Below are positions 19,075 through 57,219 of a stretch of 64,000 nucleotides of DNA, piece by piece. How positions within the stretch are numbered: the first letter of the stretch is position 1; every line of letters starts with the position of its first letter. A model generated the notes under the pieces. It saw only the letters and a program-made list of their open reading frames with translations. It had not been told where the DNA came from and did not search any database. This stretch comes from Botryllus schlosseri (Eukaryota), in the NCBI GenBank assembly GCA_051294905.1, contig CM119371.1, forward strand, positions 3,598,001 through 3,662,000, given 5' to 3'. The position numbers and the translations under genes were made by a program.

Positions 19075-19865
19075 CTGGAATGATGAATGAAATATGAATA
19101 CAATGTCGGTCAATATCATGTCAAACCAACAGAGCTTTGCACAGATTTAATCAGGGCATATTTAGGAAGCTGAGTATGTTCAACATCATTGAGATCCCCA
19201 TATTAAAGGCAAACGACCCTAGGTTTAGCGCAACGGTCTTTCACTAATCCATTCAAACGGCTCCAATCAATTCTAGGAATACACCGTACTCTATAATTGA
19301 GATTACGATTTGATTTCAGTGAATGATGGCTAATTTTATTCACTTTCGATTTAATTTTAGCGAGCGAGGCGGCCACAATAGGATCAACTGTAATTTGTAA
19401 TTGAGCTGCATGTAATTATTAATCTTTTTTCATGGTATTTGAATTGTCAGTGAAGCATTTCTATTCTGTGTAATTGTAATTTGATAAAAATTTTATTAAT
19501 TACAATTTCAATTGCATAGTTATTGAAACCTGACAATCATAACATAAAATAATTAGCCCATTAATATGGGTGTTCTATGCTTACCTCGTTAACTAATTCA
19601 GCCATACTCAACTGTTTCCCAAAGGCCAACTGCAGCTCCAACAGAAAACTTGGTGAATTACAATATAGGCTATCGAACAAAATCTCAACATTTCATAAAT
19701 TGACGAAAAGAAAATAAACTCTTCTGTAACCTGTGTGGAACTATTTCCTACACCACGGTCAGTGTTTTTTTTTAAATCTCTTTCTATTACTGAGACTCAC
19801 TCGGGCCAGATAGGTTACCCTCCGAGTTACATATAAATTCACTGGTGTTTTGTGCCTAAACTCAC

Positions 19866-20173
19866 ATGTATTCTTTTTTCCAGACACTCCGTAATGATCG
19901 ACAAAAGCTCATCGTTGATGTTGCAGTTGTGCAACTGCAAGCTATTCAGACTTTCACTCCTTGAAGCAAGCGATCCAAAGATATGAGCCTCATCGCGACT
20001 CAATGAGATGCGAGATGCATTGATATCGGAAATTTGTTTCATAAGATCGCCGTCTCCTGATTCGTAGATTGCTGTATACAGTTCCATGCGAACGAGCTTG
20101 TTGTCCACATTCTCCTTGAGATGCGAACGAATCGATCCAGCGAGAAATCGCTTTTTCAGCGGCCGATTTGAGA
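19866..20173 (-). CDS. NLR exon (helical domain 2 and first LRR)
   Basis: Acceptor tgtctaacag| in phase 1 matches the NACHT-exon donor; donor CAT|GTGAG. Contains ELYTAIYESGD (NLR HD2-like) and the LRR-like LNSLQLHNCNINDELLSII. Confidence 0.75.
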
Positions 20174-34898: not shown

Positions 34899-35470
34899 TT
34901 ATTTTTTGCAGCGGCCACAGAACCATTTGTTTTGTTTAGGGTAAGTGTTTAGTCCAGCACATAGAAGATGATCCCGGTTGAGACAGGAGTCGCAACGAAT
35001 TGAATTGCTCTTTGTAAGTTGAAGGTCGCATACTCCACAGTACCAGTCTTTCTGACTATATTTACTTTGGAATGCCTTCATCACAGCAGCCCATCCATCA
35101 TATGCGAAGTAATTCTTGATGTGGAGTATATTCACAGTCTCATCAAGGCAGCTGTTGGGGATGAGACGAGTGTCAGACGTGACAGACTTACTGCCCAATT
35201 TCTTTCCATACACTGCTTCATTAGTGTCAGATGGTGATACAAACCATGACAGCATCACTGTGAATAAGGCAGAAGTGAAATTTGCTGAAGTTCTGCATGA
35301 AATAAACTTACATCGGTCTCTGTCTTTAGGATGTATTTTTTTAAATGGAACTGGAGTGTCACATTTCTTCTTCTTCGGAAGGCCAACCACAGTTTGTTCC
35401 AAGCCTTTTGGGCGTCCTCTTTTTTCAGTTTTGATGGCAGATGAATGTTGGAAAGATCTGAAACAGCAAG
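34899..35470 (-). pseudogene. 3' remnant of MULE-associated protein with C-terminal PHD finger
   Basis: KRGRPKG basic motif followed by WYCGVC...IRCDSC...HLLCAGL...WFCGRC (C4HC3 PHD pattern). Confidence 0.75.
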
Positions 35471-35837
35471 ATCAGTTTTACTATAGTGTAGCAAGATAAA
35501 GTTTGGATTTATTTGACACCAACCCGTGAACTTGTCTGGTGTCATGGTGATTTTGCTACAGTCTAAGGACACTGCTGGGGTGCTATTTTCTGCATCACAG
35601 ACTTCGGACACTGCTATAGCGCAATCTGAAGGTAAACAAACATGCAAACATCATGAAATTGCAACATACATCTAAATCCAGTGAGTATAGTGACCTGGTC
35701 TGTGATTTAAGATAATTTCGAGCTAAAAAGGGGGCACTTCTTCGTTATTCTCCACACATCAGGAAGTGGTCTCCATGAAACCAATGCTTCCTATGAACAT
35801 GTGAGAATTTATAAACGTTAAAATAAATTGATTTTCG

Positions 35838-37315
35838 CGTTGGGGTGGGGGATATTAGGGTCGGGTGGGTTAGGATTGGGGTGGCGGGATTGTGGTTGCA
35901 TGTGTGGGGTTAGGATTGGGGTGTCGGGGTTGCATGTGTGGGGTTAGGATTGGGGTGTCGGCACGCGTGGGGTTAGGGGTGTCGTAAGATGAAGTGGTGG
36001 GGTTGCAGTTGCATGTGTCGGGTTGCGTATGCGTAAGATGAGGTGGTGGGGTTGCAGTTGCATGTGTCGGGTTGCGTATGCGTAAGATGAGGTAGTGGGG
36101 TTGCAGTTGCATGTGTCGGGTTGCGTATGCGTAAGATGAGGTGGTAGGGTTTCAGTTGCATGTGTGGGGTTAGGATTGGGGGGTCAGCACGCGTGGGTTA
36201 GGATTAGGGTGTCGTAAGATGAGGTTGCATGTGTGGGGTTGCGTATGCGTAAATGGGGTTACAGTTGCATGTGTGGGGGTTGCGTATGCGGGGTTAGGAT
36301 AGGGGTGGCTGGGTTGCGGTTGCATGTGTGGGGTTAGAAGGGTGTCGTAAGATGAGGTTGCATGTGTGGGGTTGCGTATGCGTAAAATGGGGTTACAGTT
36401 GCATGTGTGGGGGTTGCGTATGCGGGGTTAGGATAGGGGTGGCAGGGTTGCGCGTGTGGGGTTGCGTATGCGTAAAATGAGGTGGTGGGGTTACAGTTGC
36501 ATGTGTGGGGTTTGCATGTGTTGGGTTGCGTATGCGGGGTTAGGATAGGGGTGGCAGGGTTGCGGTTGCATGTGTGGGGTTAGAAGGGTGTCGTAAGATG
36601 AGGTTGCATGTGTGGGGTTAGGATTAGGGTGTCGTAAGATGAGGTGGTGGGGTTGCAGTTGCATGTGTGGGGTGAGGTGGTGGGGGTGTGGTTGCAGTTG
36701 CGTGTGCGGGGTTGCGTATGCGTAAAATGAGGTGGTGGGGTTACAGTTGCATGTGTGGGGTTTGCATGTGTTGGGTTGCGTATGCGGGGTTAGGATAGGG
36801 GTGGCAGGGTTGCGGTTGCATGTGTGGGGTTAGAAGGGTGTCGTAGATGGGGTTAGGATTAGGGTGGGGGCGTGGTTGCAGTTGCGTGTGCGGGGTTAGG
36901 ATAGGGGTTGCGGTTGCATGTGTGGGGTTAGGGATTGGGGTGTCAGCACGTGTGGGTTAGGATTAGGGTGTCGTAAGATGAGGTGGTGGGGTGTGCGGGG
37001 TTGCGTATGCGTAAAATGAGGTGGTGGGGTTACAGTTGCATGTGTGGGGTTTGCATGTGTTGGGTTGCGTATGCGGGGTTAGGATAGGGGTGGCAGGGTT
37101 GCGGTTGCATGTGTGGGGTTAGAAGGGTGTCGTAAGATGAGGTTGCATGTGTGGGGTTAGGATTAGGGTGGGGGTGTGGTTGCAGTTGCGTGGTTAGGAT
37201 AGGGGTTGCGGTTGCATGTGTGGGGTTAGGGATTGGGGTGTCAGCACGTGTGGGTTAGGATTAGGGTGTCGTAAGATGAGGTGGTGGGGTGTCATAGGAA
37301 TGGGTTGGGGTTTAG
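35838..37315. repeat. GT-rich modular minisatellite with telomere-like GGGTTAGG units
   Basis: Shuffled modules GGGGTTGCAGTTGCATGTGT, GGGTTGCGTATGCGTAAGATGAGGTGGT and GGGTTAGGATTAGGGTGTC. Confidence 0.95.
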
Positions 37316-37444
37316 GCTGAGGCTAATTTAACCCTAATTTCACGATACCAAGACTACAAAATGCTCATGGGGAACATTGCTTCTTCATGTTCATGTGGTT
37401 GTGGACCCGGTGGAAATTCCGTATCATACGTAACGCTTACTTAC

Positions 37445-37725
37445 CGTTGGTTAGGTCGTAGACCCTTAGATAAGCTCTGAAATCTGCGGCCGCCGTGGAT
37501 GCAGTGAAAAGATATCTGGCCATACTTGAGCGCATCATTGAAATTTCGCCGAGTGGTTCGCTTTCTTACTGCATCGAGCGTACGTGAATTTCTCTTGTAG
37601 AGCTGGACGTAATTTTCTTTCTGGTATTTCTCCAAAGCACTTTTTAAGTCTTCATAAGAGGCGAACCTACTCTCGGAATCCATGCCGCAGTTACGGCCCA
37701 CAGTTCCGGAAATCCCGGCACCCAT
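37445..37725 (-). pseudogene. 5' exon of MULE-type transposase (ZSWIM3/FAR1-like N-terminal DNA-binding region)
   Basis: FASYEDLKSALEKYQKENYVQLYKRNSRTL...LKYGQISFHCIHGGR..GLRPNQ, ending at donor CG|GTAAGT just inside the TIR. Confidence 0.75.
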
Positions 37726-38652
37726 TCTGCAGTTGCGGCATGCTTACGCCGGACGAATAGCCTGAGGAACTTTATTCGTCCGGGTCCGGACGAGTAGACA
37801 CTTCCTTACTGAAAAGGCTTCTGACCCCAGCGGCAGTTCAATCTCCTACACTGCAAAACCATTACGTCTGTATATTTTTCGAAGGAAAATGCTGTACCCA
37901 GGTTGTTGCTGCCGGTACGGTACTCTCTTGTTATTGCATTATGACGTTTCTCACTTAACAGAAGGTTTAACCTTAGGTCACGGGAAAGTGACACGGCCAC
38001 CGTTCATCGCGTATGAATCATAAGCTGTATTAGTTTGTAATTTGAGCGGACATGAATTTCTATGTCCTAATTCAATCCAAATCCGACAAAATTTCACAAA
38101 TCCTGTTTTTTCAAATCCTAATCCTAAGCCATGCTCCTGGCGTCCTTCTGGCGTTCCTTCTTCGCCAACGCCTCTACACCCTTGGAATATTTCAATAATG
38201 TTGTGTGCTGTTTTCTAGGTTATTTATAACCGAATATGTGCTCGTTAACGTTTGTTTTGTATCGTTACTACCGTATCTTGCCTGTCTACTAGTTGTTTTG
38301 TATGTTATTATTACGTCATAGACACAAAATAGTTATTACATTTCGAATCTGATCCACCCTATCACTGACGTTCGCTACTGAGGGTCAGTCGAAAAGCTTT
38401 TAGCGAATAAATTACCAATATGATGGTATTGTTTCGCGAATGCGTAATTTAATGCGGCTACTCGTCACATACATCGGATACGACTGCCAATTAAACCACG
38501 TAATAGTTCGTCTGTCATAGATCAGAAAAGAATAAAATAAAGTGAAATTGATCGTCTTTGGGCGATTGAGCATCCGAGACTGTAAAAACCTTTTCAGCGT
38601 GCAAATAAGCAGGCTATGCGATGCCTGCCATGTTATCTCATTGTGTTTTCGG

Positions 38653-38917
38653 CAGAGGTTGTCAGTAACGAAGTACTTCTACTATTTGAAGTACTTGAAG
38701 TAGATTCTGCCTACTCACACTACTTTTTAAGTAGTTATGATTTTAGACTACTTCTACTTCTACTTGACAGTTTTCAGTTTTGTTTGCAAAAATATGCGTG
38801 GAATACCTATTTACTACTTACTTGTGAACCACCAATCCTACTTCTACTTGACTAGAAATGCCGGCGTTACTTCTAATTCTACTTGCGTAGCGACGGTGAC
38901 TACTTTCACCAACTCTG
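38653..38917. mobile_element. hAT-type MITE with CTACTT repeats (dispersed family)
   Basis: CAGAGGTTGTCA...CACCAACTCTG with TSD GTTTTCGG/GTTTTCTG. Related ends occur near 711, 2607-5292, 10075-10318 and 31650. Confidence 0.7.
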
Positions 38918-39331
38918 GTTTTCTGCTGAGTGAAGCATTAAACGAAAATCGTTCGGGATACGCGTGTCATCAGTTGAGCTCATTTTTTGATAAAATGCAT
39001 TAGTTAAAAGGTTGATTGAATACTAAGGTGTGGAGGTTTTGTAAGAGAAGGCATATGTAAAATCCATATGCTTCGCATAAAAACCCAATGATCATTGTGA
39101 ATTTGAAATTGTACTTTGTAATGATGCGGAAAGTGCCACCAGATAAAGATTGAAGGTTGTAACTAAGTCGCATGGTTTCGAGTCACAAGTCAACCTCTTT
39201 CTTATAGTTTTGCCTCGAGTCGAGTCGTCATTTTCAATTCACCACCAAGTCAAGTCCGAGTCCAAGTCATTGTGTTGGCTTCTAATTTTCTACTGAAAGA
39301 CTAGTTGCACCCACTTTTTATAACTCTGGTG

Positions 39332-41087
39332 CAGATATGCGGTAATCGTGATTAGTAATCGTAATCGATTACGACGATTACAGCATTTGAAAATAATCGT
39401 AATCGCAATCGATTACATTCGAAAAAAATCCGAAGTAATTGTAATCGACTACTTCACATATCTAATCGATCTCTTTGTGAAAGAACGATTACTTTTCATT
39501 TGTTCAATGCCCATGACATAAACTGAACATTCGTGAACATTGAAGAGTGCGATTTGAAACAGGTTTTGGATAGCAGAATGTCGGAGGGTCAAACGCCCCT
39601 GCTCATTATTGCGTTACTAGTATTGGCTCTTCATTGCGTAACGAATTATCCGCACATATTCGTTATACATGTGATTGTAAGAAAACCCGTTATGATTATG
39701 TCAGATTATCACTACGCTGCAGACGCCACTACCTTGCAGCAGGATAATAATCACCACTCTGCCTAGTTTCGAATAGTAACGTATGTAGGCCCACTAAGTA
39801 TTGATGTTTTGTTATACTTAGGTGAGCGCAGTTTAACAGTTGATTGGCTAGCGGTAGGCCTATCTACGTTGACACCGGGTAAAGATTTGATATTTTTTAC
39901 TCGTCAAATCGTCATGACAATTTCTACATCGAAGCATTAAAAACCAACGGCTGCTGATAAAAAATCATAACTGAGCCGTTATTATCCATTACTCGTATAC
40001 CGACAGCTCGGAATATCTGTATTAAGTGGATTGTAGGCAGAAATCTATGTTTACCTCATCATATTCTTATCCAGCCCTTGAAATGGGCAACAATTTCTAT
40101 TTCGCAATTTTATACTCAACATCTGGATCTGCTACTGTAGCCACCCGCTTATAAGCGGTTATAAGCGGTACGAATTCTTGCTGCAATCCACGCTTAGCCT
40201 ACACGCCATGTAGGCTAAGCGTGGATTGCAGCAAGAATTCGTACCGAAACAGCATTTCGCCACCCCCTATTCAAAAATGGTGATCTTTGGCCCCCATATA
40301 GGGCGATCAGTAAAACTTCTGGCGGGCGAAGTTCCCCAGACCCTCATTTAACTGCCGGGCTTTTTTCACAAGAACTGGAAAACACGATTTGATGCGATAT
40401 GGATTCGCTGTGTATTTGCTCTCAAGTCGCGCCAATACGAATATTCAGGCACGTAATTTAAAACCATAACCACGTTGTATGTTTTTGATTCATGATATTC
40501 TTTTTGCCATGTAGTAAAAAGATATTGGAGTTGCCTTAACGTAGCAGACGATAAAAAACCTAAACGAAAAACTTTCGTGAGTCGCACCCAGAAATTGTCA
40601 TTTCTACACGGGGTTCATCATTTTCCTCAGTGGGTACCTCGGGTGGCATTTCTATTGTGGTGCTGAGATTGAAAAGACTATTCGTCACGACCATCAAGCG
40701 CGGCTTTGGGCAATGGAAAAATACAAAATGTTTCGGCCAAGGTAGCATGTCTTGTTGAGTCGCGGCGCGGTATTGGACGCCACCGAAATGCCTATTTCTG
40801 TAAATCATGCAATGGTATGTCATATACAGTAAATGACACTATGACATCTTATTTAAAAAGAAAGACCTTCTCTCATGAGCCCTTTTCATCGCATTGTTGT
40901 CTTCCAAAGATAACTTCTAAGAAGCAAAATAAATGTAATCGCGAGTAATCGTGATAACTTTTCCATAGTAATCGTGATCGTAATCGACTACTTGCGGGTT
41001 TTGCTGTAATCGTAATCGTAATTGCATGATATGAAAGTAATCGTAATCGCAATCGATTACATTCATGAAGTAATCACCCCATGTCTG
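39332..41087. mobile_element. hAT-type element with (GTAATC)n subterminal repeats (element B)
   Basis: CAGATATG...CATGTCTG with perfect TSD CTCTGGTG (39324-39331 and 41088-41095). Confidence 0.8.
40166..40246. repeat. Perfect hairpin, 38-bp arms and 5-nt loop
   Basis: CGGTACGAATTCTTGCTGCAATCCACGCTTAGCCTACA-cgcca-TGTAGGCTAAGCGTGGATTGCAGCAAGAATTCGTACCG. Confidence 0.95.
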
Positions 41088-42027
41088 CTCTGGTGATATC
41101 GAATGGTTTTCAGTTATCATATATACTAATTTTCCTCACTTTTAGCAGTTTTTGGCAGACATGTACATTGTACAAACTGAATATTGAGTTAGTTGATGGT
41201 AATTTAACCAACGTTTTTAGAGTAGTTGTAGTTCTGAAGTAGCTGATTTCGTAAATTGAGTAGTAGGATAGTAGTTCTGGTTGCGGATTTTAAAAATTGC
41301 TCTAGCTCTAGTTCGAGTTGCAGATTTCGAATTCTAGTTTCAGACAAACACGTGCGGTCGTTTTAGGTGAATTACGTTGTCGGTGTTATGTTGGATGATG
41401 TTTCTGCACTCTGCAGTGTGCAGCCATTGCTTGCTCAGAGCCATCACTGCTAACAGTTGCGTAGCCAGCGATTGGCTTTTTTGGTGTCGGAATCACTCCC
41501 GTTTCAAACTCGAAACACCGTTATTTTGAAATGTCCATGAAATGTTTGGTATTCCCAATAAAATAACAGTTGATGTGAATATCAGGAGAATTAAATCAAG
41601 ATCTGTACGGTTCTTAACCTTTGAAGACTTGAGAGCCCTACGTCACAGATAGGCAACTATTTTTCTGTGTATGACATGCAGGAAATACGTTGACGAGCTA
41701 AGACAAAAGATTGCACTACATTCTGCGTGCATTAATCTCTAATAATTACCTGGAAAGAGCTCGAATGTGAATCCAGATTATTTCGTAAATCAACATGAAG
41801 TAGGGTGTTTGGGACACATTTTATTTTTCTTCAAAGTTTTCCCTACAATTCCCGCGTATATAGTCCATCTTTGACCCGCGAAACGTAAAACGCCCAGGTC
41901 CGCGCAATGCTTATCGACAGGCGTTCAGGGGACCCTTAATTTTCAGTGAGTTACAAAACAAAACTCTACCACATGTGTCCGTACCATACGTGTGGGAATC
42001 TGTAGGACTACCAGTAAAGATAGTTAG

Positions 42028-45018
42028 TAGGGATGGTGTGAACCTCTGAAAGGTTCAGGTTCGCGTGAACGTGAACCTTTTTGAAAGGTTCTGTGTGAAC
42101 GCGAACGTGAACCTCATGACGTCACGTGACGTCATATTGCTAATTCCGACCCTACATTTCAGTGAAGTGAGCCTATATTAATGTACATTGTACACTATAT
42201 ACCTATAGCGACGACTCGGGCCACATAATGCCACAATGCTAAAGTATATATTGACGTTTTAAACGTCACCGGTTTTATCAACTGGGGCAATCAATTGATA
42301 TAATCACCCCAGAAAGTCAATATCTTCCATCGCTTTGCCAACAATTTCGACAAGAACTTGCAAGGTAATAGATGCTTATATACGCCTTAACGGTCAAGGC
42401 CAGGCAGGAAAATGTATTCGTCGTCCGAGTATTGCTACGTTGATATTGAGCAGAGGTTAACAAGTTATACAGCAGTAGCCAACATCCCAATCGCACGGAT
42501 TTGGCTTTTATGATACAATAAGCATATGAAATTAAGATTGACCCCGTACGCCAGCTACATTTTTTACCTCAGACAACGACATCAATTTCGTTAATTGGTT
42601 GAATAAGCATCATTCGCTGACTATCTACATGTAGTGTAATTCGCTTTTGATATTGTGAGCAGGGCATGGTATGGTATGGAATGGAATGAGAATCTTCCAT
42701 ACTCCATACCCGCCCAATCGTTCCATACCATACTTGACAATTTTCCATACCATAGCAACATTCTTCCATACCATATTTGATACTTTTTCCATACTTTCGC
42801 AACTTGGCCAACCTCTCAAGGGATATTCTATTTTTGACGTGTGGAAATGTTCCAGTGTATTATATTCTAATTATTTTGGATGAGATTATCCATTTATACA
42901 GCCCCGATGCTCCAATGATATCCCCAGTTTCTTTATAGCATATGTCGACAACGCTGTAAAAATGTATATAGGCCTATACACACGGGATTATTTGGAAATC
43001 ACAACAGAGTCTCATGACATGTAAATCTAGTGTGGTAACGTGCTAGCAGTAACCTCATCTACAGAATTGCATAACACAAAGGTATTGTCAAATTATAAGA
43101 TAGGTTCCCAACCTTTATACACTTTAGAATTGAATTTATTTTGTAAAGACTTGCTATTGGCGAAAGTTCAGACCCCCAAAATGGAACAGCACGCAATGAA
43201 ATTAATGAGCAGTGAACTGGTAACCGTACACGCAATGTTGCGCCTCCGTAAAATGGATATGTGAGGTAAGCTGACAGAAAAATAGGAAGGGTTTGAATTT
43301 TTTTCAAATGTGCCAAGGTAGCATCACTTTACATATGTAAATGCCGAATATATTGCATGGGTCTGTTAACTTCTTGGTGTTGACGAACTTTTATGCGTAT
43401 GGTAGATATAAGCCACCATAACCTACACTGTCGCACGCTACTATTACTCGAGTAGTAAGAAATATGTCATTTCCTCAGTAACGAGTCCGGCTATGCTATC
43501 AATTAGCGATTCCACGATCTCCATACACGATCTCTACATATAAACTTTTATTTTAACGAATCAGGTGATTTCAATCACACCATTTCGTATACGAATGAAT
43601 AACAAACTATATGAGGGAGATCGCGTGCCGCTGTCCACTCGATTCTCGCTCATTGGAGGCAGTGATAATACGAATTGCTGAATTGCAAATGAGCGAAGAA
43701 TTATTATAGATATATACGATCGGCATTTCATACAAACGTTTAATAAACGAAGTTAATAATGTAAACTGTAAAGAATATGTTTTCCAAAGTGAGTCTTTTC
43801 CCAACCAGAGGGCCTTAAATTCCCCACAATTGGGGTATATTCTCCACCGGTTGGAGAATATTTCTTTAAATATAATTTTTCATCACTACAATCATTATGC
43901 GACAGCTAATTAAATGTATATTTTCTCCGCCAATCTGTGGGTCGATCACACTCGTTAGCTTTATTAGCCATATCAAGGTGTCCTCTGACCATTATATCAG
44001 AAATAACCAGATTTCATGAAGTTACAATGCGTGTTGTAGGCCGGCATATGGTAACGTCGCTCCAAGACGAGCTACATATTTTTGAATCACAATGATGGTT
44101 ATGTCAAATAGATATTGCGTGATGATCATCCGCGCCAAGCGCAGAAAATTATTTCCAAGTTCAACAAATTGATGAAAATATTCATGTAACTTCTACATTC
44201 TCAGAGTCTACGATTTTAAAACTATACATTGGTCATTTACGTAGTGGGAGTTACGATAAGTGAAATGCACTTGTAACGTGCTCGCCGTCGAATATCATTC
44301 ATTTTTATGATATTTAAATCGGAATAATTATCATTAATATTATTTTCATTCATATGTGCATCGCGAAACTTAGCTGTCTTCAAATAAATGTCGACCGGGA
44401 AGGGTGAGTCGTGAATCACAATTTGAGATATGAACAATGAACATAGACAATGAGCGATTTTCTGCGGTATGCAATCAATTTGACAAATCGAAAGTAGGAT
44501 TATTGTCATGGTACTGGCAAAAATGTAAAAGTATGGAAAAAGTATGGAAGTATGGAAAACACCTTCCATACCATACTTGAGAAATCTCCATACCATACCA
44601 TACTTGCACTCTTCCATATTCCATACCAAAATTTCGTTCCATTCCATACCCTACTTCCATACCATACCATACCATACCATGCCCTGATTGTGAGATTGCG
44701 GGTCAAGCTCACAGCAGAGAGTCACTAAATATTCACAAACGAAAAGCTGGATATTTCGAGCAAACGTTTGTAACAAACCAAGTAAAATTTTTGAGATGGT
44801 CAAGGTGCATGCCATTTTAGTGTTGATTTTTATGCTGCCAACGCCATGTATTGGATGGCCCGTAGTTGAAATACAATAAATTTCAACCAAAGATGATGTG
44901 ATATGAAAAAGGTTCACAGTGCAGAACCTACCGAGGTTCGTTTGTGAACGTGAACCTCTAAATATCAGAGGTTCACACACAGAACGCGAACGTGAACCTC
45001 ACGTTCACACCATCCCTA
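42028..45018. mobile_element. hAT-type element with GTGAAC repeats (element D)
   Basis: TIR TAGGGATGGTGTGAAC...GTTCACACCATCCCTA with perfect TSD ATAGTTAG. Confidence 0.88.
42660..44686. mobile_element. hAT-type element with (TATGG)n repeats, copy 2 (element E)
   Basis: TIR CAGGGCATGGTATGG...CCATACCATGCCCTG with perfect TSD ATTGTGAG. Opposite orientation to 13660-15460. Confidence 0.88.
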
Positions 45019-45648
45019 ATAGTTAGGCTCACTTGTACGAACTACCCATTTATTTAGTTGATAGTCAACTAACTAATAGTTTTTTTAGTAGTTTTAGTTC
45101 TAGTTGACGATTTTAAAAGTTGAGTAGTTTTAGTTCTCGTTGTAGCTGCGGATTGTAAAAACTGACTAGTTGCAGTTCTAGTTGTTTTGGTAAATCTAGT
45201 TATTTTCACATCGTTGCGAGTTTTAAAAAATGAGTAGTTCTATTTCTAGTTGGGCTTTTTTACAACCCAAGAGTTCGTGCAAGTTTGGTTTCTGGTTGCA
45301 TTTTCAAGTACCAGTACCAATAGACGAAATTACAATGGAATGTCGGTCTTGGTCGTCTGAGTCTCGACTCATATGACTTGGTTCTAGTCATGCGCAATAA
45401 CTCGAGTCCAAGTCGACTCAGTACACAGATTGACTCGAGTGTAGTCGAGTCATTTCCATATTTTAGGAAAATGAATCGGGTCAGGTCTAGTCATCAGAAA
45501 TTCGTGACTCGAGTCATTATAACATTGCCCCACATATACACGACCTATGTCAACGATGTGGTGCAGCTGCATCATGGGACATTTGGCGACAATGACCATT
45601 GATTTTATGAAACAGGATGTACTACATAGTACCGGATAAAACACTTAC

Positions 45649-45798
45649 GTTGGTCTTGTGGAATAGCGTCAATTCCTGAATTTATAATGTAGTTGATGGT
45701 GGTCTTGTTTCCGTGAATTTGATCTCCTGCCACAACGTTGACCGAGCTGTTTATGATCCGTTGATTGATGTTTTCGCCTTCTGCCAAACTTGCAGATC
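45649..45798 (-). CDS. Putative NLR exon 2 encoding a RHIM/amyloid-like motif
   Basis: Acceptor gtgtctcag|, donor C|GTAAGT, 150 nt, phase 1-1, compatible with both exon 1 and the NACHT exon. Translation SASLAEGENINQRIINSSVNVVAGDQIHGNKTTINYIINSGIDAIPQDQ. Confidence 0.65.
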
Positions 45799-47053
45799 CT
45801 GAGACACGCGAGAATATTACGTCTGATATTCCGGTTCATATACTCATTTGAAAGCATTTTTAAATCAAGTATCGATCATGGAAACTTCCCATAATTTCTC
45901 CTTAATATTAGGTTATGCAGCGCTCGAATATTAATATTATATTTCAATAATTTAATTATATGCTTTGTGGTACGGAAATTGAATATAGCTTTCAATGTAT
46001 TCATAGTAGTAGAATATTTATTGAACTTGAAGAATTCTAGGGTGCCTCTTTTCGAGAGTTAACGGCACACCAAAAAGATTTTAACAGATTCAAAAGTAAA
46101 CCAAAAAGGCTAAGTATGACAGACCATGAGATTCGCATTGTAACTATGATAACTATATTAAACTTCGAAGTGCAGTAAGGTATGGTTGCTAAAAAATTCG
46201 ACCCTGGGGAATTTTGTATTAAAATGTGTAACCAACCATTAATATGAGATAATTACATAATTATACTACTATGAAGTGATTCGCAGTTCAGGGTATGCGT
46301 AGCTCGCGAGAAATACCGCGGATATTTACGAGGCCGAATTAACATGGTAAATTCGGCCCTCGGAGAATTTTATATTAAATGTATTCCCAACTATTAACAT
46401 GAATTACACAATTATCTTATTACCAAGTGATTTGGAGGTCGCGGTATGCGTAGATCACGCAGTCACGGGCGATAACGCGAATATTTACGGGCCCGAATAC
46501 ATTTTAATAGAAAATTCATTTTTATGCAAAATTCACCGAGGGCCAAATTTACCGAGGGCCGAATTTCCGAGGGCCACTAGTAACCCACGCCCCGAGGTCA
46601 TATAGCTACAGCATAATTTATAAATATACAGTTGCAAACACGAAACAAAATAAACTAAGGAGAATTTAGTGAGTTGTAGACAGAATATTTTTGTCAGCAT
46701 AAATAGGTTTGTCAATTGAATAAGGGTATAGTTCAACACTGTGAATGAAACAAAGATCTGCCTAGCGTAATGACAGTGAATACATTGTCATCAATTATAG
46801 TGTTGTGTGCAGGCTAGATTTTCACTTGAATGTTTAGCAATCGACGAAGCATATGCTTGGAATAATCCTCATAAGAATATGTTTGGGCAGCTAATTTGCA
46901 TTGGCGTGCGAGCTCTACGTGGTCTATTTGCGAATGTTTTATAGCGAATCGATTCTGGATTATGCTGCTTTATACGCTCGAACAATCCGTGCTAACTTTA
47001 ATATGATTTCATAGGATATAGATATGAACTCAAATATTGTAGCAATTACTTAC

Positions 47054-47126
47054 TGCTTCCTTCAGGTAATAATGGTGGAGTCACATCATCGACACCAGAA
47101 ATTCGCTCTTCTCCCCCTTCCGCCAT
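47054..47126 (-). CDS. Putative NLR first coding exon
   Basis: Kozak-like ATC ATG G, then MAEGGEERISGVDDVTPPLLPEGS and donor A|GTAAGT (phase 1). Lies directly downstream of a motif-rich promoter. Confidence 0.6.
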
Positions 47127-47226
47127 GATCACGATCACGTAATGATAAATAAATGCTATAACACACAATACTAAGAATGCAAAGACAGGGAATATCAGTA
47201 GTGAGGGTATCTGGGATATAGACCCG

Positions 47227-47431
47227 CCAATCCCAGAAGGCCACGTCTCCTTAATTGCCACGCCTACATTGCCACATCATGCGCCCACTGCCGCACCTAT
47301 AGCACACCCATTGCCACATCATCAGCATCCATTGCCACATAGCCCGCCAATCAGAGAACGCCACGTCATCCTAATTGCCACGCCTATATGACGCCCATTG
47401 TCACGCCTACAGGATACCCATTGCCACGTCA
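47227..47431 (-). promoter_or_regulatory. ER-stress-type promoter: two ERSE motifs and two UPRE/XBP1 sites
   Basis: CCAAT-cccagaagg-CCACG (47227-47245) and CCAAT-cagagaacg-CCACG (47347-47365), both with N9 spacing. CCACGTCA (reverse complement TGACGTGG) at 47361-47368 and 47424-47431. Further GCCAC repeats lie between them. Confidence 0.7.
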
Positions 47432-48316
47432 CCTGCCACTGCCACATCGTGTGTATTTATGAGCAAATTTCATTGTTTTGTGAATTTCAATACCGGTTTT
47501 CCATGTATATTTAACAATATGTATTGAATAACTTGAAATGTATCATCACTAATTAATTAATATAAAATGTGATTTTAAGCGCTGCGACTTGAAAATATTA
47601 ATATAATAACTTACTTTTTTGGATATAAATAACATTCAGATTACACATAAATTTCGAAAGCTATGATGTTAATAGAATACTATATTTGCCAGATATTCAA
47701 AGATAACACTCATCAACGTTGAACTAGGCGTGGGGTTCTATGATGATGTATTAAAATTCTACACATCATCACTAATTAATTAATTCATATAAAATGCGAT
47801 TTTGAGCGCAGACAGATCGTGGTTTCGATTGCCGAGGTCTCCGCATTTCATGACCTAATATGAACGCACACTACAACTGAATTCATTCCAATACCTGCAA
47901 ATTTACTTTGCATGTCGAGTATAAGGATAATTTAATCAGCGCTAAAACGCCAACGGACTAGCCGTAGGCGCACAATTCTCGGCGTTACAATTAAACAAAC
48001 TTTTCGCGGCAGGTACGCGATTCCTAATGGTTTCTACAGTTTCCACATTTCACGACTTATTTTCTTTGGACGCATACAAGCGATTCCCAAGGCCGGGGCT
48101 ATGGAAACAAATCAAGCATGAGTACGTAAATCTTGAGCCACTCTGAAGCAAGGGCCACTCTAGCCGGGAAATTAGAGTCGCTGCTTCGCATCATTTTTAC
48201 AGGCAGTCTCAGACACTTTGCTGCATCTGAGCTTCATACTAATACATGCATCATTTTTGCATGACGAGAATACGGTCAATAAACGCCGGAGGCGAGTCAT
48301 TTAAACCTTGTTGCTA

Positions 48317-48394: not shown

Positions 48395-51240
48395 CAATTA
48401 TACATCGAATTATTTGAATAGACTATCTACATTGTGTAGGTATGAAGTGAAATAGAACGGAGTTTACGCAAAAGTTGCTATTGATCATAGACCAAGCTTG
48501 CTTTCAGAGCTGGAAACTAAATGCATATGAAAATTTAGCTAGGTTTTCCCCACACGCATCAAATGGAGGCCTACTCAAGTGTTTATGAGGTGGCGGATAG
48601 TTCGGAGGTTGTTGGCATGGAAGGACGTCACATAGAATTGTGGAGTTTTCTGTAAACTATAATCCAGTGATCTATTTTCAATCTCTATATTTTTCATTAA
48701 TCTAAACTAAGTACTGTTAGTAGGCAAACCCTAAGAAAGTATCCTCTGATAAAAGCAGGAGTAATTTGTTATCCGTGAAATAAATAGATGGTGCGCAATA
48801 TGAGCGGTGCTGCGATGACTGACAAATACTTTGAATTAATGTATAGAAGTAGCGATTTCGAACTACGTAAAAAGTTAGTCCAGCTCACGCATTTTCCATT
48901 TTGAATTTATGTTCTCAAGTAGGTTTTTGTCTACACGCACCAACAACTCAAGTATTTATGACACAGGAATGATTCATTAAGTATAGCGCAAGCAGGCCAA
49001 ACCTATATTTGAGTGCTCCAAAATGTACAAGTACTTCGCTATGTACTCCCTCCACGTAAAAAGTGACAGATTTAGGGAAAAGTTGCTATAGAACTGCGTT
49101 AGTTTTAAAGTTGTTCCATCATGCAATGTGTGATGAAATTTGGTATGCTGCATAATCACAATGCCCTGGAGCTCATTTAGATACGTTTTTTAATGTAGTT
49201 ACACATTCTAGTTGTTTTGATGTAAGGAAAAAATCATTCGATAACTCGATAGTTAACACGCGTTGATGTAACTTTCCTCATTTGTATGCATAGCATACGC
49301 GAAATTATTATTATGTCATGAATAAGTAGTTTACAAATTCATACGATTTTTCTTGTTGCGCTCCGGGATAAAATGTAATTTTTCGCTCTTTTTTATTTTT
49401 TCAATAAAATTAGTATTCATTTTACAAAAAACGCCGTGTAAAGATAAAGTACTTGTACATTTCGTAGTGCTCAAGTATAAGTTTTCAAACCATTACCTTG
49501 ACAAAATTTTCAGAATAGCAACTTTTGCGTAAAGTCTGTCTTGCATTTAGTTGCCGGCTCTGAAAGCAAGCAAAGTTTGTGGTATTTGCGCAACATCGAA
49601 ATTTGTACACTTCACGCGGGGCCTACGATACTTACGGCCTAATATGGCACATTACACTTGCTGGATATAAGAGGCCGACACTCCCAACCAGACATCACGA
49701 CTGACTCAATGATTGCTTACGATCTCACTTCTCGATACCAGACGCCTCGCCATACAAGTCTAATAAAGTATTATAACAGACAAAATTAGTTCTTTCAGAT
49801 GAAACAACCCAATTAAGAGCCAAGTGACAGCGTCGCAATGTATTTAATCACCAACACACAAGAAGACAATGTAACGAGAATCCCCAACTTGGGCATGTAA
49901 AAGTATTTTACAGTATGGTAAAACGAATTCAAGCACGGGAAAATGAAATTCATTCATTTGGAACTACTCTGAAACACACACGTGGAGCTTGGCCATAGAA
50001 GTTCTGCAAGTGAAATGAATTACTGCAGTAAGCAAACTACGTCTTGCTCAACTGCCGCTTTTTTTAGAGTCCTTCACAGCATCTTTTCTCATATAAACGG
50101 ACAACCGGTTTCAGAGTATACCCGCGTCGATCGCATCGCATCTATATCAACGGTTAACCACATGAAATAACAATATGCTCTTGTATATCGAAATATACAT
50201 GTTTTATAGAATATATTAGATCCAATACCTATACTAAAGCCGCAAAACGCATTGGAGCATAAATGGATAATGCACGCAGATCGAATTACACCGAGATTTC
50301 CCGAATAAAAGTAGCCTAGAAACATAACTACTTACTAAAAAATCGTTGCGTAGAAGTGGGGTTAGTCTACGAACATAACCACTTACTTACTTTGAAATCT
50401 CAACGTGTACTTGTATTCGTACTTTACCTTTACACGGCGTTTTTGTATAATGGATACTAATTTTATTAAAAATAAACAAAAAGCGCGAAAAATTACATTT
50501 TATCCTGGAACGCAGCATGAAAAAATCGTATAAATTTTGTAAAGTAGATAGAAGACTACACTATTCCGATGCACTAAAGACTCTTACACTCTGGATTTTG
50601 TTCGGAATTTACGCAAAACCGCTGTTGCTCTGCGATAATTTTGATCACTATGTTTTGATAATGACTTGCTTCCGAGAAAGAAATAACATTCATTAAACGT
50701 TAGATGATACTTTTCCTTGATATTCTATCATGTATATTTATGACTAATGCGACATCACTATGTGTACGACAGGTCTGATTTGAACACACTAATTTTGCGT
50801 ATCACACCACAAACTGCGCAAGCCTTCAAAGTTGATAAGTAAACAAGTATTTGCACTCCATCAGAATACTAAAGTAGCTTTTCGCGTATATGTACCTAAT
50901 ACTAAAGTGTTTATGATTTCAGATTGCTTCAACTTCATGACATTTTCTGTAAACAGAAATATAGACCTAGAATACTAACTTTTATTCGTAAATAGATACT
51001 TCTACCTTAATTTAATGGATTTATCTGAGATCATTGATTTACTTAATCCCTCCAAAATGTGCATTATACAAGTACGTCACCATCGAAACCCTCTGGCTAT
51101 AACTATCTGGCAGTATAATTGCAGCAAAAACTCGAGTACTAATTTTAAAGTAACTTAGGTAACTAAATACTCGGGTACTAATTTTAAAGTAACTTAGGTA
51201 TCTAAATGAGCTCTGAGTCGCTGTTATCTCGCATCTGACC

Positions 51241-51297
51241 ATGGAGTTAACACCGGTATTACCTTCGCTCACTGATGAAAAAGATGAAAGTTGTTAA
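51241..51297 (+). pseudogene. Truncated 5' fragment of a Bcl-2-family paralog (mirror copy at 57110-57166, minus)
   Basis: MELTPVLPSLTDEKDE then stop, versus MELSRVSAPSITEEKDE of the intact gene. The upstream AGCTCTGA(G/C)TCGCT is also shared. Confidence 0.7.
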
Positions 51298-51867
51298 AGA
51301 AAGCAGATTAGTATGAAAACTCGTTAAATAGAAGTAAAAGTAGCCTAGAAACATAACTACTTACTGAAAAATCGTTACGTAGAAATGGGGTTAGTCTACG
51401 AACATAACCACTTACTTACTTTGAAATCTCAACTTGTACTTGTAGTCGTACTTTACCTTTACACGACGTTTTTGTATAATGGATACTAATTTTATTAAAA
51501 ATAAACAAAAAGCGCGAGAAATTACATTTTATCCCGGAACGCATCAAGAAAAATCATATAAATTTTGTAAAGTAGATAGAAAACTACACTATTCCGATGC
51601 CCGGAAGACTCTTACACTCTGGATTTTGTGCAGTATATACTAATTTTACATTGCGGAGTATTCCATTAACGTTAATCCAGTGATCCTCCATCTATTTTCA
51701 ATCACGATCCTCTTATTTGTCTAGGCTTCGAACCCCACATCCAGTACGTTTTCTGGGGATTAATATTTTCAGAGTCAAGTATAGCGTATCGAGACTTCAT
51801 GAAACTTACTTGGAAATAGTTACTTCTACCCTAATTTAAAAGGTTTCTCAGATATCGTTACAATGGA

Positions 51868-51950
51868 AATGGGTTGAGCGAGCGGTTAAGGCGTTGGACT
51901 TAAGTTTCAATGAACAGGTGTTCACGTGGGTTCGAACCCAACACCCAGTA
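51868..51950 (+). tRNA. tRNA-Leu(TAA)-like, probably degenerate or a pseudogene
   Basis: 83 nt. GAGCGGTTAAGGCG-TTGGA-CT-TAA-GT-TTCAA, paired variable arm, GGTTCGAACCC B-box. Single mismatches in the acceptor and T stems. Confidence 0.75.
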
Positions 51951-52401
51951 CGTTTTAAGGGGATTAATACTTTTAGATTCAAATATAGCGTATCGAGTAC
52001 TTTTTCTCAACTGTAATAACAACTTTTAGACTCCGGATTTTGTGTAGTATATACTAATTTACAATACCGCATTTGTAATTCGTGCAAGTACAGGAATATC
52101 ATAGTTCTTGTAACAAAGTTGTCTGCGCACAATATATGTTAATCATAAGTCCTACACATTCATGATTTCGTCCTAGTTTGAGTTTTAGAAAATATTATAC
52201 CGACATCGCGACATCTTTCAAAAACAAAACCATGATCAATGCTTGAGAGATCATTTTTGCTATTTATCATTGACATAAGTCATTCTGGAGTGCGAAAACG
52301 CATTGTACGATATAGATGAAACTTGAGCAAATCCAAGGATCCTCATTTTCAAAGTAGCTTAGATCTCGAAATAAGCTCTGACTCGCTATTCTCCTCAAAC
52401 C

Positions 52402-53186
52402 ATGGAATTATCACGAGTATCAGCACCTTCGATCACTGAAGAGAAGGATGAAATTATATCCGAAGCATATTCCTTGACCAGGAATTTTATCATGTACGAA
52501 CTCGATGGCTCATGCGTTAAGGTAAATACGAAAGCAGAGAGAACCTTACGTCGAGTTGGGTATGAAATGTTCGAGCGACATCGAACAGTCCTGAACGCAG
52601 TCTCCAAACGTCTCCGCTATAGTGATGTTGAAGTCAATGAAAAATATAAAGAATATTTACCCGATGAGCGAATGTTCCTGATGATAGCTGAGGAAATTTT
52701 CAAAGATACCAAAGAAAATTGGGGGAGGATTGTCTCCATTTTTGTGCTCGGTAGCATTCTTGCTCGCAAGAACGAGAATGAACATCACGGGGAGCATATA
52801 GAAGCTATCATACAGACAGTTGGGAATTACATTGCTAGCAAAAGACGAAAGTGGATAGTGCGAAATGGAGGATGGGTGGGTGATTTACATGCCTTGCTTA
52901 GGATTTACAAATTATCTTTAGCATGAGATATATAGTGTATCTGCTCTCCAGAGCCCATATCACCTCTCGATGATGAAATTCAGCTTTAGCTTCTAATTCG
53001 GTTCCCAATTTATATTCTACGACACGATAACTTTCCTCCGTATGATCATTAAGGCTTCTATTTTTATTGCAGGACGGCTTTGTAGAATTCTTTGATAATA
53101 CCGCTTTCGACTACAATAAAGTTTGGAAGGGACTCGTGTTTGTCGGAATCGGACTGACATCTATTGCAATAACATTATCAAGATAA
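52402..53186 (+). CDS. Bcl-2-family protein (multi-BH, C-terminal TM anchor), 195 aa; exons 52402-52875 and 53073-53186
   Basis: BH3-like LRRVGYEM, BH1 EEIFKDTKENWGRIVSIFVLG, and BH2 WIVRNGGW|DGFVEFF split by a GT-AG intron at the family's typical position. Tail VWKGLVFVGIGLTSIAITLSR*. Confidence 0.92.
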
Positions 53187-55220
53187 TGGATGTTCGCATG
53201 CTTTATCTCATGTAATATTTTACCAATATAATTCTCCATCGTTTAATCGTGGTAGTTTTTCTGTAGGATGTATACAGTTTTTCTGAGAATACTCGAAACA
53301 TTTGCCCCATAAGAAAACCTTCTTTATACTTTTAATTTTTCAAATTTCTACAGCTACGTAAGGGAATTGTTAGGGTTACCCAGAATACGCTGCAGGTCAA
53401 ATTTGATTCGAATACGAGCAGTATTGTGACAGAGATTTGCGATAATGTAAAATAACCTACCTTATACGACATCAAATTTCGTCTTCTCTCCAAGTGGAAA
53501 TATCATGTTCAATAATATTGTTTATACCGAACAAATATAAAATTGCCTATGCTGTTGCTTTGCAAGAATACTTCGCTCAGTAACCAATTTCTGGTGGATT
53601 CCAAATCGATATAGATAGAAATACGGCATACTTTACGCTCCAATTCGCTTCCCACACATTCCATATAATTACTAACAGAACAGTACCAGCCTTGAAATTT
53701 TGCGTAGTACTAGATGGCATGTATACAATTTCATGACATCCGACAGTACGACGGAGACTATCAAAATATCGGAAGGAGCTAGAGTACTAACGTTTTACTT
53801 ACTCGAAAATGACTACTTCTACCTTATTTTAAAGGATTCTTCGCTCGGAGCGAAATTTTATGTGGTTTTGGATACTATCCAAGATGTAGGCTCACTTTGA
53901 TGGGTACTTCGTAAAACTCAAATATTGCGCAGTGAGAGTTCTCAAATTCTCGAAGTATTTTTGTTATTTTTATTGCGAAAAGTCATTCTGCAGCGCGAAA
54001 ATGCGTCGTAGGATATAGATGACACTAGCACCACTCATCAAGACCACTGAAAACAGTACATTTCAACATTTAGTAGCAGTAAATTACTAGTAAAGTAAAA
54101 GAAGGTATGATTTCTGAGTGAGTTAAAAAGTATGATGGGTATTCGTTGCGTTGTATAAGCATAAAAACATTCCCGCGCGCTCGTAAACCTAACACTTCCT
54201 ACCCTACCACCTACTACTAAGACGCGCGCGCGGGAATGTTTTTTATGCTTATACAACGCAACGAATACCCATCATACTTTTTAACTCACTCAGAAATCAT
54301 ACCTTCTTTTACTTTACTAGTAATTTACTGCTACTAAATGTTGAAATGTACTGTTTTCAGTGGTCTTGATGAGTGGTGCTAGTGTCATCTATATCCTACG
54401 ACGCATTTTCGCGCTGCAGAATGACTTTTCGCAATAAAAATAACAAAAATACTTCGAGAATTTGAGAACTCTCACTGCGCAATATTTGAGTTTTACGAAG
54501 TACCCATCAAAGTGAGCCTACATCTTGGATAGTATCCAAAACCACATAAAATTTCGCTCCGAGCGAAGAATCCTTTAAAATAAGGTAGAAGTAGTCATTT
54601 TCGAGTAAGTAAAACGTTAGTACTCTAGCTCCTTCCGATATTTTGATAGTCTCCGTCGTACTGTCGGATGTCATGAAATTGTATACATGCCATCTAGTAC
54701 TACGCAAAATTTCAAGGCTGGTACTGTTCTGTTAGTAATTATATGGAATGTGTGGGAAGCGAATTGGAGCGTAAAGTATGCCGTATTTCTATCTATATCG
54801 ATTTGGAATCCACCAGAAATTGGTTACTGAGCGAAGTATTCTTGCAAAGCAACAGCATAGGCAATTTTATATTTGTTCGGTATAAACAATATTATTGAAC
54901 ATGATATTTCCACTTGGAGAGAAGACGAAATTTGATGTCGTATAAGGTAGGTTATTTTACATTATCGCAAATCTCTGTCACAATACTGCTCGTATTCGAA
55001 TCAAATTTGACCTGCAGCGTATTCTGGGTAACCCTAACAATTCCCTTACGTAGCTGTAGAAATTTGAAAAATTAAAAGTATAAAGAAGGTTTTCTTATGG
55101 GGCAAATGTTTCGAGTATTCTCAGAAAAACTGTATACATCCTACAGAAAAACTACCACGATTAAACGATGGAGAATTATATTGGTAAAATATTACATGAG
55201 ATAAAGCATGCGAACATCCA

Positions 55221-56005
55221 TTATCTTGATAATGTTATTGCAATAGATGTCAGTCCGATTCCGACAAACACGAGTCCCTTCCAAACTTTATTGTAGTCGA
55301 AAGCGGTATTATCAAAGAATTCTACAAAGCCGTCCTGCAATAAAAATAGAAGCCTTAATGATCATACGGAGGAAAGTTATCGTGTCGTAGAATATAAATT
55401 GGGAACCGAATTAGAAGCTAAAGCTGAATTTCATCATCGAGAGGTGATATGGGCTCTGGAGAGCAGATACACTATATATCTCATGCTAAAGATAATTTGT
55501 AAATCCTAAGCAAGGCATGTAAATCACCCACCCATCCTCCATTTCGCACTATCCACTTTCGTCTTTTGCTAGCAATGTAATTCCCAACTGTCTGTATGAT
55601 AGCTTCTATATGCTCCCCGTGATGTTCATTCTCGTTCTTGCGAGCAAGAATGCTACCGAGCACAAAAATGGAGACAATCCTCCCCCAATTTTCTTTGGTA
55701 TCTTTGAAAATTTCCTCAGCTATCATCAGGAACATTCGCTCATCGGGTAAATATTCTTTATATTTTTCATTGACTTCAACATCACTATAGCGGAGACGTT
55801 TGGAGACTGCGTTCAGGACTGTTCGATGTCGCTCGAACATTTCATACCCAACTCGACGTAAGGTTCTCTCTGCTTTCGTATTTACCTTAACGCATGAGCC
55901 ATCGAGTTCGTACATGATAAAATTCCTGGTCAAGGAATATGCTTCGGATATAATTTCATCCTTCTCTTCAGTGATCGAAGGTGCTGATACTCGTGATAAT
56001 TCCAT
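55221..56005 (-). CDS. Bcl-2-family protein, mirror copy; exons 55532-56005 and 55221-55334
   Basis: Reverse complement of 52402-53186 with an identical exon-1 ORF translation. Confidence 0.85.
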
Positions 56006-56456
56006 GGTTTGAGGAGAATAGCGAGTCAGAGCTTATTTCGAGATCTAAGCTACTTTGAAAATGAGGATCCTTGGATTTGCTCAAGTTTCATCTATATCGT
56101 ACAATGCGTTTTCGCACTCCAGAATGACTTATGTCAATGATAAATAGCAAAAATGATCTCTCAAGCATTGATCATGGTTTTGTTTTTGAAAGATGTCGCG
56201 ATGTCGGTATAATATTTTCTAAAACTCAAACTAGGACGAAATCATGAATGTGTAGGACTTATGATTAACATATATTGTGCGCAGACAACTTTGTTACAAG
56301 AACTATGATATTCCTGTACTTGCACGAATTACAAATGCGGTATTGTAAATTAGTATATACTACACAAAATCCGGAGTCTAAAAGTTGTTATTACAGTTGA
56401 GAAAAAGTACTCGATACGCTATATTTGAATCTAAAAGTATTAATCCCCTTAAAACG

Positions 56457-56539
56457 TACTGGGTGTTGGGTTCGAACCCACGTGAACACCTGTTCATTGA
56501 AACTTAAGTCCAACGCCTTAACCGCTCGCTCAACCCATT
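56457..56539 (-). tRNA. tRNA-Leu(TAA)-like, mirror copy
   Basis: Reverse complement of 51868-51950. Confidence 0.7.
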
Positions 56540-57219
56540 TCCATTGTAACGATATCTGAGAAACCTTTTAAATTAGGGTAGAAGTAACTATTTCCAAGTA
56601 AGTTTCATGAAGTCTCGATACGCTATACTTGACTCTGAAAATATTAATCCCCAGAAAACGTACTGGATGTGGGGTTCGAAGCCTAGACAAATAAGAGGAT
56701 CGTGATTGAAAATAGATGGAGGATCACTGGATTAACGTTAATGGAATACTCCGCAATGTAAAATTAGTATATACTGCACAAAATCCAGAGTGTAAGAGTC
56801 TTCCGGGCATCGGAATAGTGTAGTTTTCTATCTACTTTACAAAATTTATATGATTTTTCTTGATGCGTTCCGGGATAAAATGTAATTTCTCGCGCTTTTT
56901 GTTTATTTTTAATAAAATTAGTATCCATTATACAAAAACGTCGTGTAAAGGTAAAGTACGACTACAAGTACAAGTTGAGATTTCAAAGTAAGTAAGTGGT
57001 TATGTTCGTAGACTAACCCCATTTCTACGTAACGATTTTTCAGTAAGTAGTTATGTTTCTAGGCTACTTTTACTTCTATTTAACGAGTTTTCATACTAAT
57101 CTGCTTTCTTTAACAACTTTCATCTTTTTCATCAGTGAGCGAAGGTAATACCGGTGTTAACTCCATGGTCAGATGCGAGATAACAGCGACTCAGAGCTCA
57201 TTTAGATACCTAAGTTACT

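Follow-up and report, generated by a model that had tools for sequence, protein, structure and literature searches.

No living group is closer to the vertebrates than the tunicates, and the locus considered here raises the question of what occupies the signalling end of one of their NLRs. Expanded NLR sets of tunicates, including ascidians, are depicted in the available text of one account (PMC11508797) as having no N-terminal signalling domain. A preliminary description of 64,000 nucleotides of Botryllus schlosseri DNA (the whole stretch analysed, hereafter the window) had proposed that one NLR gene carries, instead of a death-fold domain, a small exon encoding a RHIM-like or amyloid-like motif. 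The question thus breaks down into whether this exon is real, whether it belongs to the NLR, which motif family its peptide may join and how such a peptide could act. The gene model has the following parts.

47126-47054, minus strand: exon 1, 73 nt, encoding MAEGGEERISGVDDVTPPLLPEGS, with donor GTAAGT in phase 1.
45798-45649, minus strand: exon 2, encoding the 49-aa motif peptide (P0002), with homologous exons elsewhere and recovered by a profile at E 3e-21.
45707-45784, minus strand: conserved core of the exon 2 peptide, A5-N30, AEG-N-NQ--I-S-VNVVAGDQI-GN, from an alignment (A1) of five exon peptides.
23681-45648, minus strand: predicted intron 2, 22 kb, containing a ZSWIM3_N ORF, a PHD-finger ORF and a minisatellite.
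23680-22239, minus strand: NACHT exon (P0003), 480 aa, with Walker A motif GSGKTT, phase-1 entry and donor GTGAGT, recognized by Pfam.
20192-19875 (approximate borders), minus strand: next exon, with the NLR helical (HD2) region and first LRR, located by tblastn of Styela NLRs; ORF 19842-20207.

Exon 2 is open over its 150 nt and symmetric (phase 1-1), with flanks ...tgtctcAG and GTAAGT, as the preliminary description had it. Its phase-1 translation is SASLAEGENINQRIINSSVNVVAGDQIHGNKTTINYIINSGIDAIPQDQ, which contains exactly the peptide reported there and has a single proline, at residue 46. Exon 1 opens with an ATG in the context A-3/G+4 (ATCATGG) and comprises 24 codons plus one base before its GTAAGT donor. 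The NACHT exon begins at 23680 after ...ctttcAG, and its phase-1 entry restores the frame. All three exons lie on the same strand and are mutually in frame, so the earlier placement of exon 2 between a 24-aa first exon and the NACHT exon holds for frame and phase. The stretch directly upstream of exon 1 (47230-47450, minus strand) looks like a promoter: it has some eight words resembling GTGGCAATGG, along with two GATTGGCGGG words that we take to be reverse CCAAT boxes. Within intron 2, the minus strand carries ORFs for a PHD finger (34902-35471, E 6.4e-5) and a ZSWIM3_N domain (37444-37743, E 4e-11) that look like a transposon-derived gene. Contigs of two sets described below (X1 and X2) cover 37400-37772 with one differing letter at a depth of ∼200. 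The intron also contains, at 35867-37292, a G-rich minisatellite of ∼1.4 kb that is built on a TTGCATGTGTGGGGTT-type core and repeats at periods between 34 and 250 nt.

The NACHT exon matches Pfam NACHT with an E value of 3.8e-14, contains GSGKTT and gives weak matches to NOD2_WH and NLRC4_HD2. A NACHT NTPase with a Walker A motif is thus followed by helical and LRR regions, the exon for HD2 and the first LRR having been found by tblastn, and this is the makeup of an NLR. Among the 19 long relatives of the NACHT exon (E ≤ 1e-5), 17 are NLRs of Styela clava, at 28-35% identity. In the length class of 264-840 aa, 13 Logan exon-ORFs match it at 33-52% identity, together with four further Styela proteins. 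These relatives mark the window as tunicate, and its lineage as one in which the NLR family is diverged and has many copies. The NACHT exon has no in-frame ATG ahead of the PDFQVHPQ block that is common to the Styela and Logan relatives, and hence an upstream coding exon is needed.

The preliminary description had found no CARD, DD, DED or PYD exon, and our searches, which included the 22-kb intron, agree with it. In the interval 23.6-47.3 kb, the minus strand has 115 ORFs of at least 45 aa, one of which is the NACHT ORF itself; the other 114 gave no match to Death, CARD, DED or PYD at E ≤ 0.05. As a scan by ORF, this could miss a domain split over small exons, and 121 intron ORFs of 30-44 aa lie below its length limit. 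Upstream of exon 1, at 47.1-52.4 kb, none of 36 ORFs of at least 35 aa matched any Pfam family at E ≤ 0.01. The window also contains an inverted repeat (50952-54167 and 54240-57455) with arms of 3216 nt that are 100% identical and lie 72 nt apart. The two arms carry the same Bcl-2-family ORF of 183 codons (52375-52926, plus strand; 55481-56032, minus strand; Pfam Bcl-2 E 1.7e-21). Either the repeat is an artefact of fold-back during assembly, or an apoptosis regulator 5 kb from exon 1 has undergone palindromic duplication very recently.

To place exon 2 among known proteins, we compared its 49-aa peptide with 1.84 billion protein representatives using phmmer (cut-off E ≤ 1e-3). Seven matches were obtained, four of which are short Logan genomic ORFs of 83-100 aa: P0040 (E 1.1e-8, 66% identity), P0041 (1.9e-7, 60%), P0042 (2.5e-6, 73%) and P0045 (2.1e-4, 69%). 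All four are cluster singletons on contigs of 1.1-1.6 kb, too short to include neighbouring genes. The other three, P0043 (2342 aa, 20 stretches, which we take to be cadherin-like), P0044 (a repeat protein of 1829 aa) and P0046 (ankyrin repeats), were set aside as repeat or low-complexity matches. In three of the four Logan ORFs, (V/L)-G precedes the first exon residue, as expected if a codon ending in A precedes one made of the G of the acceptor AG plus GA; the P0040 ORF starts inside the exon, and only its donor side can be read. Beyond the last exon codon, the residues fit read-through of GTGAGT in all four (G-E-C, G-Y-I, S-E-S). Frame, exon length (147 or 150 nt) and donor therefore appear to be conserved in all four homologues and the acceptor in three, as far as amino-acid read-through, rather than the DNA of these copies, can indicate.

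Alignment of the five exon peptides shows 16 invariant columns, including V19-I27 (VNVVAGDQI) in 5/5 copies. Invariance is confined to the first strand and turn, and the second half differs among copies. With the window excluded, a profile of the other four copies recovered the exon 2 ORF from its first residue to its last (E 3e-21). Exon 2 was the only site for this profile among 2226 six-frame ORFs of the window; the runner-up (40347-40421, E 0.041) has no splice signals and was rejected. Lack of conservation among paralogues, which the preliminary description had named, together with a failure to form amyloid, as grounds for giving up its proposal, is not what we see, as the four outside copies share 60-73% identity with exon 2. 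A word-indexed search of proteins of 87-2000 aa in a collection of 5.8 billion clusters gave 13 candidates, none with E ≤ 10. In the ESM Atlas, the best score was 0.83, to unnamed clusters and with recognition below threshold, and there was no usable named match. A metagenome scan for the motif gave 143 pattern matches and one locus, where VNVVAGDQ occurs (2097-2204) in an unrelated 212-aa ORF of a dense, prokaryote- or phage-like contig; we regard this as a chance match. Judged by its sequence, exon 2 is a real, conserved and lineage-restricted coding exon, and it is under selection.

We then turned to RNA evidence for the region 37400-47400, which came from two contig sets (X1 and X2, for which the RNA label is only a guess) and two raw runs labelled as RNA of the same species (X21 and X22), sampled at 6-13%. 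In the bins that hold exons 1 and 2, depth ranged from 0 to 0.4 for X21 and from 0 to 3.2 for X22. Most signal fell on repeats, and 97% of placed raw reads fitted only partially. One X2 contig (record 15) covers 45649-45773 and ends exactly at the predicted exon 2 donor, with ∼98 letters unplaced. A second X2 contig (record 16, 200 nt) covers 47053-47170 with 10 differing letters and ends one base past the exon 1 donor; the extra base is the same as that with which exon 2 begins. Splicing at each of the two donors would be consistent with these records. In X2, however, pieces of the intron occur at comparable depth, and hence this set may be DNA. An X1 contig (record 8) extends from 45797 to 45494, through the exon 2 donor and 155 nt into the intron, and so at least that molecule was unspliced or genomic. 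Divergence from the window is 8-10% for all three records. The joints listed from this comparison include none between exons 1 and 2. Between exon 2 and the NACHT exon, an ORF scan and the four-copy profile revealed no other conserved coding exon. Based on the shared strand, the matching phase and this absence of another candidate, exon 2 is probably joined to the NACHT exon.

Two readings would sever exon 2 from the receptor. One is that exon 2 is a non-coding, chance open frame flanked by chance splice signals. The very low depth in the RNA runs compared would fit this idea, as would the absence of the peptide from all proteins of 87-2000 aa in the 5.8-billion-cluster collection. Nevertheless, four independent copies, at 60-73% identity, keep the frame and core, and read-through is consistent with both borders in three of them and with the donor in the fourth. 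We consider a chance frame extremely improbable; these comparisons all but refute it. The other reading is that exons 1 and 2 are not constitutive in the NLR mRNA, either because they belong to another transcript or because exon 2 is an optional cassette. That would leave a NACHT-LRR receptor with a bare N-terminus, as the literature depicts ascidian NLRs. In line with this, the implied intron is 22 kb long and has a transposon-like gene inside it, the 45649|23680 joint is unobserved in an RNA comparison that spanned 37400-47400, and ascidian NLRs are described without an N-terminal domain, at least in the portion of PMC11508797 available. Moreover, exon 1 ends in phase 1 and could be spliced directly onto the NACHT exon in frame, and because exon 2 is in phase 1-1, skipping it preserves the frame. 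Against this, the NACHT exon needs coding sequence upstream that provides an ATG and ends in phase 1, no other conserved coding exon was found between it and exon 2, and motif exons and NACHT exons are each present, in the same source of data, as a diverged family of many copies. We therefore view a non-constitutive exon 2 as unlikely, and go on with exon 2 as part of the NLR.

The preliminary description had called the peptide rich in N, I, V, G and Q, with no proline in its core, and this composition is borne out. The N/Q/G/S fraction of the first 40 residues is 0.30-0.42 in the exon 2 peptides, compared to 0.20 ± 0.06 in a background of 1224 windows drawn from related NACHT exons. Between 1 and 31 of the 1224 background windows were equally N/Q/G/S-rich, strand-rich and proline-free. 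In 5/5 copies, the first proline comes at residue 39 or later, or there is none, leaving ∼38 proline-free residues, and the core is low in charge. An AF2 monomer prediction on the alignment gave a mean pLDDT of 54.7 and one long, low-confidence helix; this low confidence fits a non-globular segment, although it is uninformative as to cross-beta fibrils. Reading the alignment itself, rather than using a dedicated predictor, we infer that I14-A23 may form a strand in which small or hydrophobic positions alternate with Asn. This would be followed by an invariant G-D turn, by Q-I-x-G-N, and by a variable hydrophobic stretch with a conserved Tyr.

Does such a peptide belong to the RHIM family? The preliminary description saw in IINSSVN-VVAG-DQ a variant RHIM-like core and advised running the RHIM HMM. 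Neither P0002 nor any of the five aligned exon peptides matched a Pfam family in hmmscan at E ≤ 10, although HMMER filters drop most matches above ∼0.1, such that this null means none better than roughly that value. In particular, no match to HET-s_218-289, Ses_B or NACHT_sigma was reported for the exon peptides. A phmmer search of PDB sequences with the exon 2 peptide returned no matches. The A1 profile, run against 177,635 distinct PDB sequences, returned one, photosystem II D1 (E 8.3), which we attribute to chance; no RIPK1, RIPK3 or HET-s chain was among the matches. RHIM, PP and BASS3 share the core G-phi-Q-phi-G, according to the accessible text of Dyrka et al. (10.1101/2020.01.06.895854). 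All five copies instead read G-D-Q-I-(H/Y/L)-(G/A), with G-D-Q-I-H-G in the window copy: Asp stands at the first phi, and the second Gly, replaced by Ala in 1/5, is displaced by one extra residue. The sequence tests run do not support identification of the motif as a RHIM, and this part of the earlier claim is left unsupported.

A looser core, V-x-x-G, is quoted as that of the 'cryptic RHIM' in the available part of a 2026 review (PMC13506858). VVAG matches it in 5/5 copies, but a pattern that fixes two residues is often expected by chance. The cryptic RHIM carriers that this source names are insect PGRP-LC/LE, Imd and STING and shrimp SRB2. Like VVAG here, these innate-immune proteins have a relaxed core; unlike the gene of exon 2, none of those named is an NLR, and V-x-x-G is too loose to establish kinship.

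For comparison within tunicates, we looked at the NLR paralogues of Styela clava (P0004-P0020, P0036-P0038), the closest NACHT relatives at about 30-36% identity, whose domain-poor N-termini contain units rich in I, V, N, Q and G, such as ...ATTIIRDSVIIIGERS. Two kinds of unit are present: a very N-terminal one, MADQGQQQEGANIVNIQ..., and a two-part one of ∼42 residues, ...ESNINIIGGEGMITKGEGATTIIRDSVIIIGERS, with up to three copies in P0014. P0006 and P0038 contain IVQVGD, and P0004 has a Death domain at the same N-terminal position (E 4.5e-5). Pfam RHIM was found in none of 12 Styela proteins scanned at E ≤ 1. An HMM of the Styela unit ranked the exon 2 ORF 15th of 2226 (E 9.2), and the ORF was absent from the 14 matches (E ≤ 20) of an HMM of the Styela N-terminus. 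In the opposite direction, the best match of the A1 profile to 21 Styela N-termini had an E value of 0.026 for a database of that size, which is not significant, and hhalign of A1 with the Styela alignment (A2) gave a probability of 1.3%. The likeness between the Styela units and exon 2 is thus one of style, with no significant sequence match. The presence of such units, or of a Death domain, in the Styela N-termini fits the idea that the NLR N-terminal position may hold interchangeable interaction modules.

The closest known arrangement is in amphioxus. RHIM-NACHT proteins, in which a RHIM takes the place of death-fold domains, exist in Branchiostoma, as reported in the available text of Kajava et al. 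(2014, PMC4262963), and hence the architecture itself is not new for animals. The candidate animal amyloid-signalling NLR of the preliminary description would therefore not be a first. The Branchiostoma floridae proteins (e.g. BF82280) have a short non-globular motif N-terminal to NACHT, as modelled here, and both hosts are invertebrate chordates. The amphioxus motifs, however, match the RHIM profile (PMC4262963, in the text available), whereas the exon 2 motif matches no RHIM model and lacks G-phi-Q-phi-G. NLR-side amyloid motifs are also known in fungi and bacteria (10.1101/2020.01.06.895854, available text). These motifs (HRAM/HET-s, PP, sigma, BASS1-10) resemble exon 2 in being ∼20-40 residues long, N/Q/G-rich with hydrophobic positions, and proline-free. 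They are diverse and lineage-specific, and they lie at the N-terminus of a NACHT or NB-ARC receptor, the same position as in our gene model. They differ in two ways. The exon 2 motif has an exon to itself and belongs to an animal gene, and what defines the fungal and bacterial motifs is that a neighbouring gene encodes an effector with a matching motif. The four-copy profile detected no second copy on a nearby effector among the 2226 six-frame ORFs of the 64-kb window, and so the pairing with an adjacent effector known from fungi and bacteria is absent here. In the portions of the literature retrieved, we found no report of an amyloid-like or RHIM-like motif in tunicate NLRs.

Given these comparisons, exon 2 would most likely encode the module that a tunicate NACHT-LRR receptor carries at its N-terminus, in the effector position. 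This reading is favoured by the conserved exon with its frame-compatible phase 1-1, the lack of a death-fold match, and the NQGS-rich, proline-free core. It also draws on the precedents of RHIM-NACHT proteins (PMC4262963) and of the fungal and bacterial motifs (10.1101/2020.01.06.895854), each as far as the available text goes, and on the Styela NLRs, in which the same position holds a Death domain or I/V/N/G-rich repeat units. The module would be a strand-prone, proline-free peptide of ∼35 residues rather than a folded domain. Oligomerisation of NACHT would bring several copies of the peptide together, and the clustered peptides would pair through beta-sheet (cross-beta, RHIM-like) contacts, either with one another or with the same motif on a downstream protein. 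That the peptide is an oligomerisation-driven interaction motif seems to us close to an even chance. The full mechanism, in which oligomerisation drives beta-sheet assembly, is more tentative. That the assembly would be amyloid is a plausible guess that we rate as unlikely. Against the model as a whole stand the missing sequence link to a known amyloid motif (Pfam, 0/5; PDB, a chance match), the departure from G-phi-Q-phi-G, the single copy of the motif in the window, the variable second half of the peptide, the lack of significant likeness to the Styela units, and the low RNA depth with no 45649|23680 joint among the transcripts. Of the overall interpretation in the preliminary description, then, the real conserved exon, its composition, its effector position in the model and the absence of a death-fold match all stand, and the RHIM identity is not supported by sequence.

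Descent from the RHIM/PP/BASS3 family and one-to-one binding have to be weighed against this module. In favour of a true but divergent member of that family, the exon 2 peptide has I-x-N-S ahead of the core and Tyr behind it, as RHIMs do. VVAG also fits V-x-x-G in all five copies (core as given in the available part of PMC13506858). However, that pattern is too loose to count, the Pfam RHIM model (PF12721) is without a match at E ≤ 10 in 5/5 peptides, RIPK1 and RIPK3 chains are absent from the PDB profile matches, and G-phi-Q-phi-G is not present. Moreover, RHIMs seem to be missing from tunicates, in the text available of Kajava et al. (2014, PMC4262963). We consider such descent very unlikely. 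Alternatively, exon 2 may encode a short linear or disordered tail of the NLR that binds one-to-one, with no cross-beta polymer. Its target would be a folded partner or, for autoinhibition, the receptor's own NACHT or LRR region, and it would bind by strand addition or through a V-x-V-V patch like that of SUMO-interaction motifs. The invariant block of just ∼12-26 residues amid variable sequence is in keeping with a linear motif, as are the lack of an amyloid-family match and of a confident AF2 fold. VNVV would likewise fit the hydrophobic core pattern of SUMO-interaction motifs. Then again, the conserved AEG..N.NQ..I.S.VNVVAGDQI.GN exceeds the typical length of a linear motif, and the N/G/V composition and ∼38 proline-free residues are traits described for signalling amyloid motifs. 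One-to-one binding strikes us as only a little less likely than the full mechanism, and we retain the oligomerisation-driven module as the working model. A bolder version of that model is that ascidians evolved their own family of exon-encoded cross-beta motifs, which replaced the death-folds of NLRs, and that AEG-N-NQ--I-S-VNVVAGDQI-GN templates an effector with the same motif. This version is speculative, and we think it improbable.

Tunicate NLRs have been described without an N-terminal signalling domain (PMC11508797, in the text available), and a conserved, exon-encoded, non-globular motif in the effector position is a concrete candidate for how these receptors may signal. Set against the literature searched, as far as its text was available, the exon 2 system would be a new variety of a described receptor-motif architecture. 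Should exon 2 turn out to be optional, or its peptide to be no more than a linear motif, it would be an ordinary lineage-specific N-terminal tail. If the peptide forms amyloid, a chordate lineage outside the RHIM family would be added to the NLR-linked amyloid systems, which would help to judge whether motifs of this sort are ancient or have arisen repeatedly.
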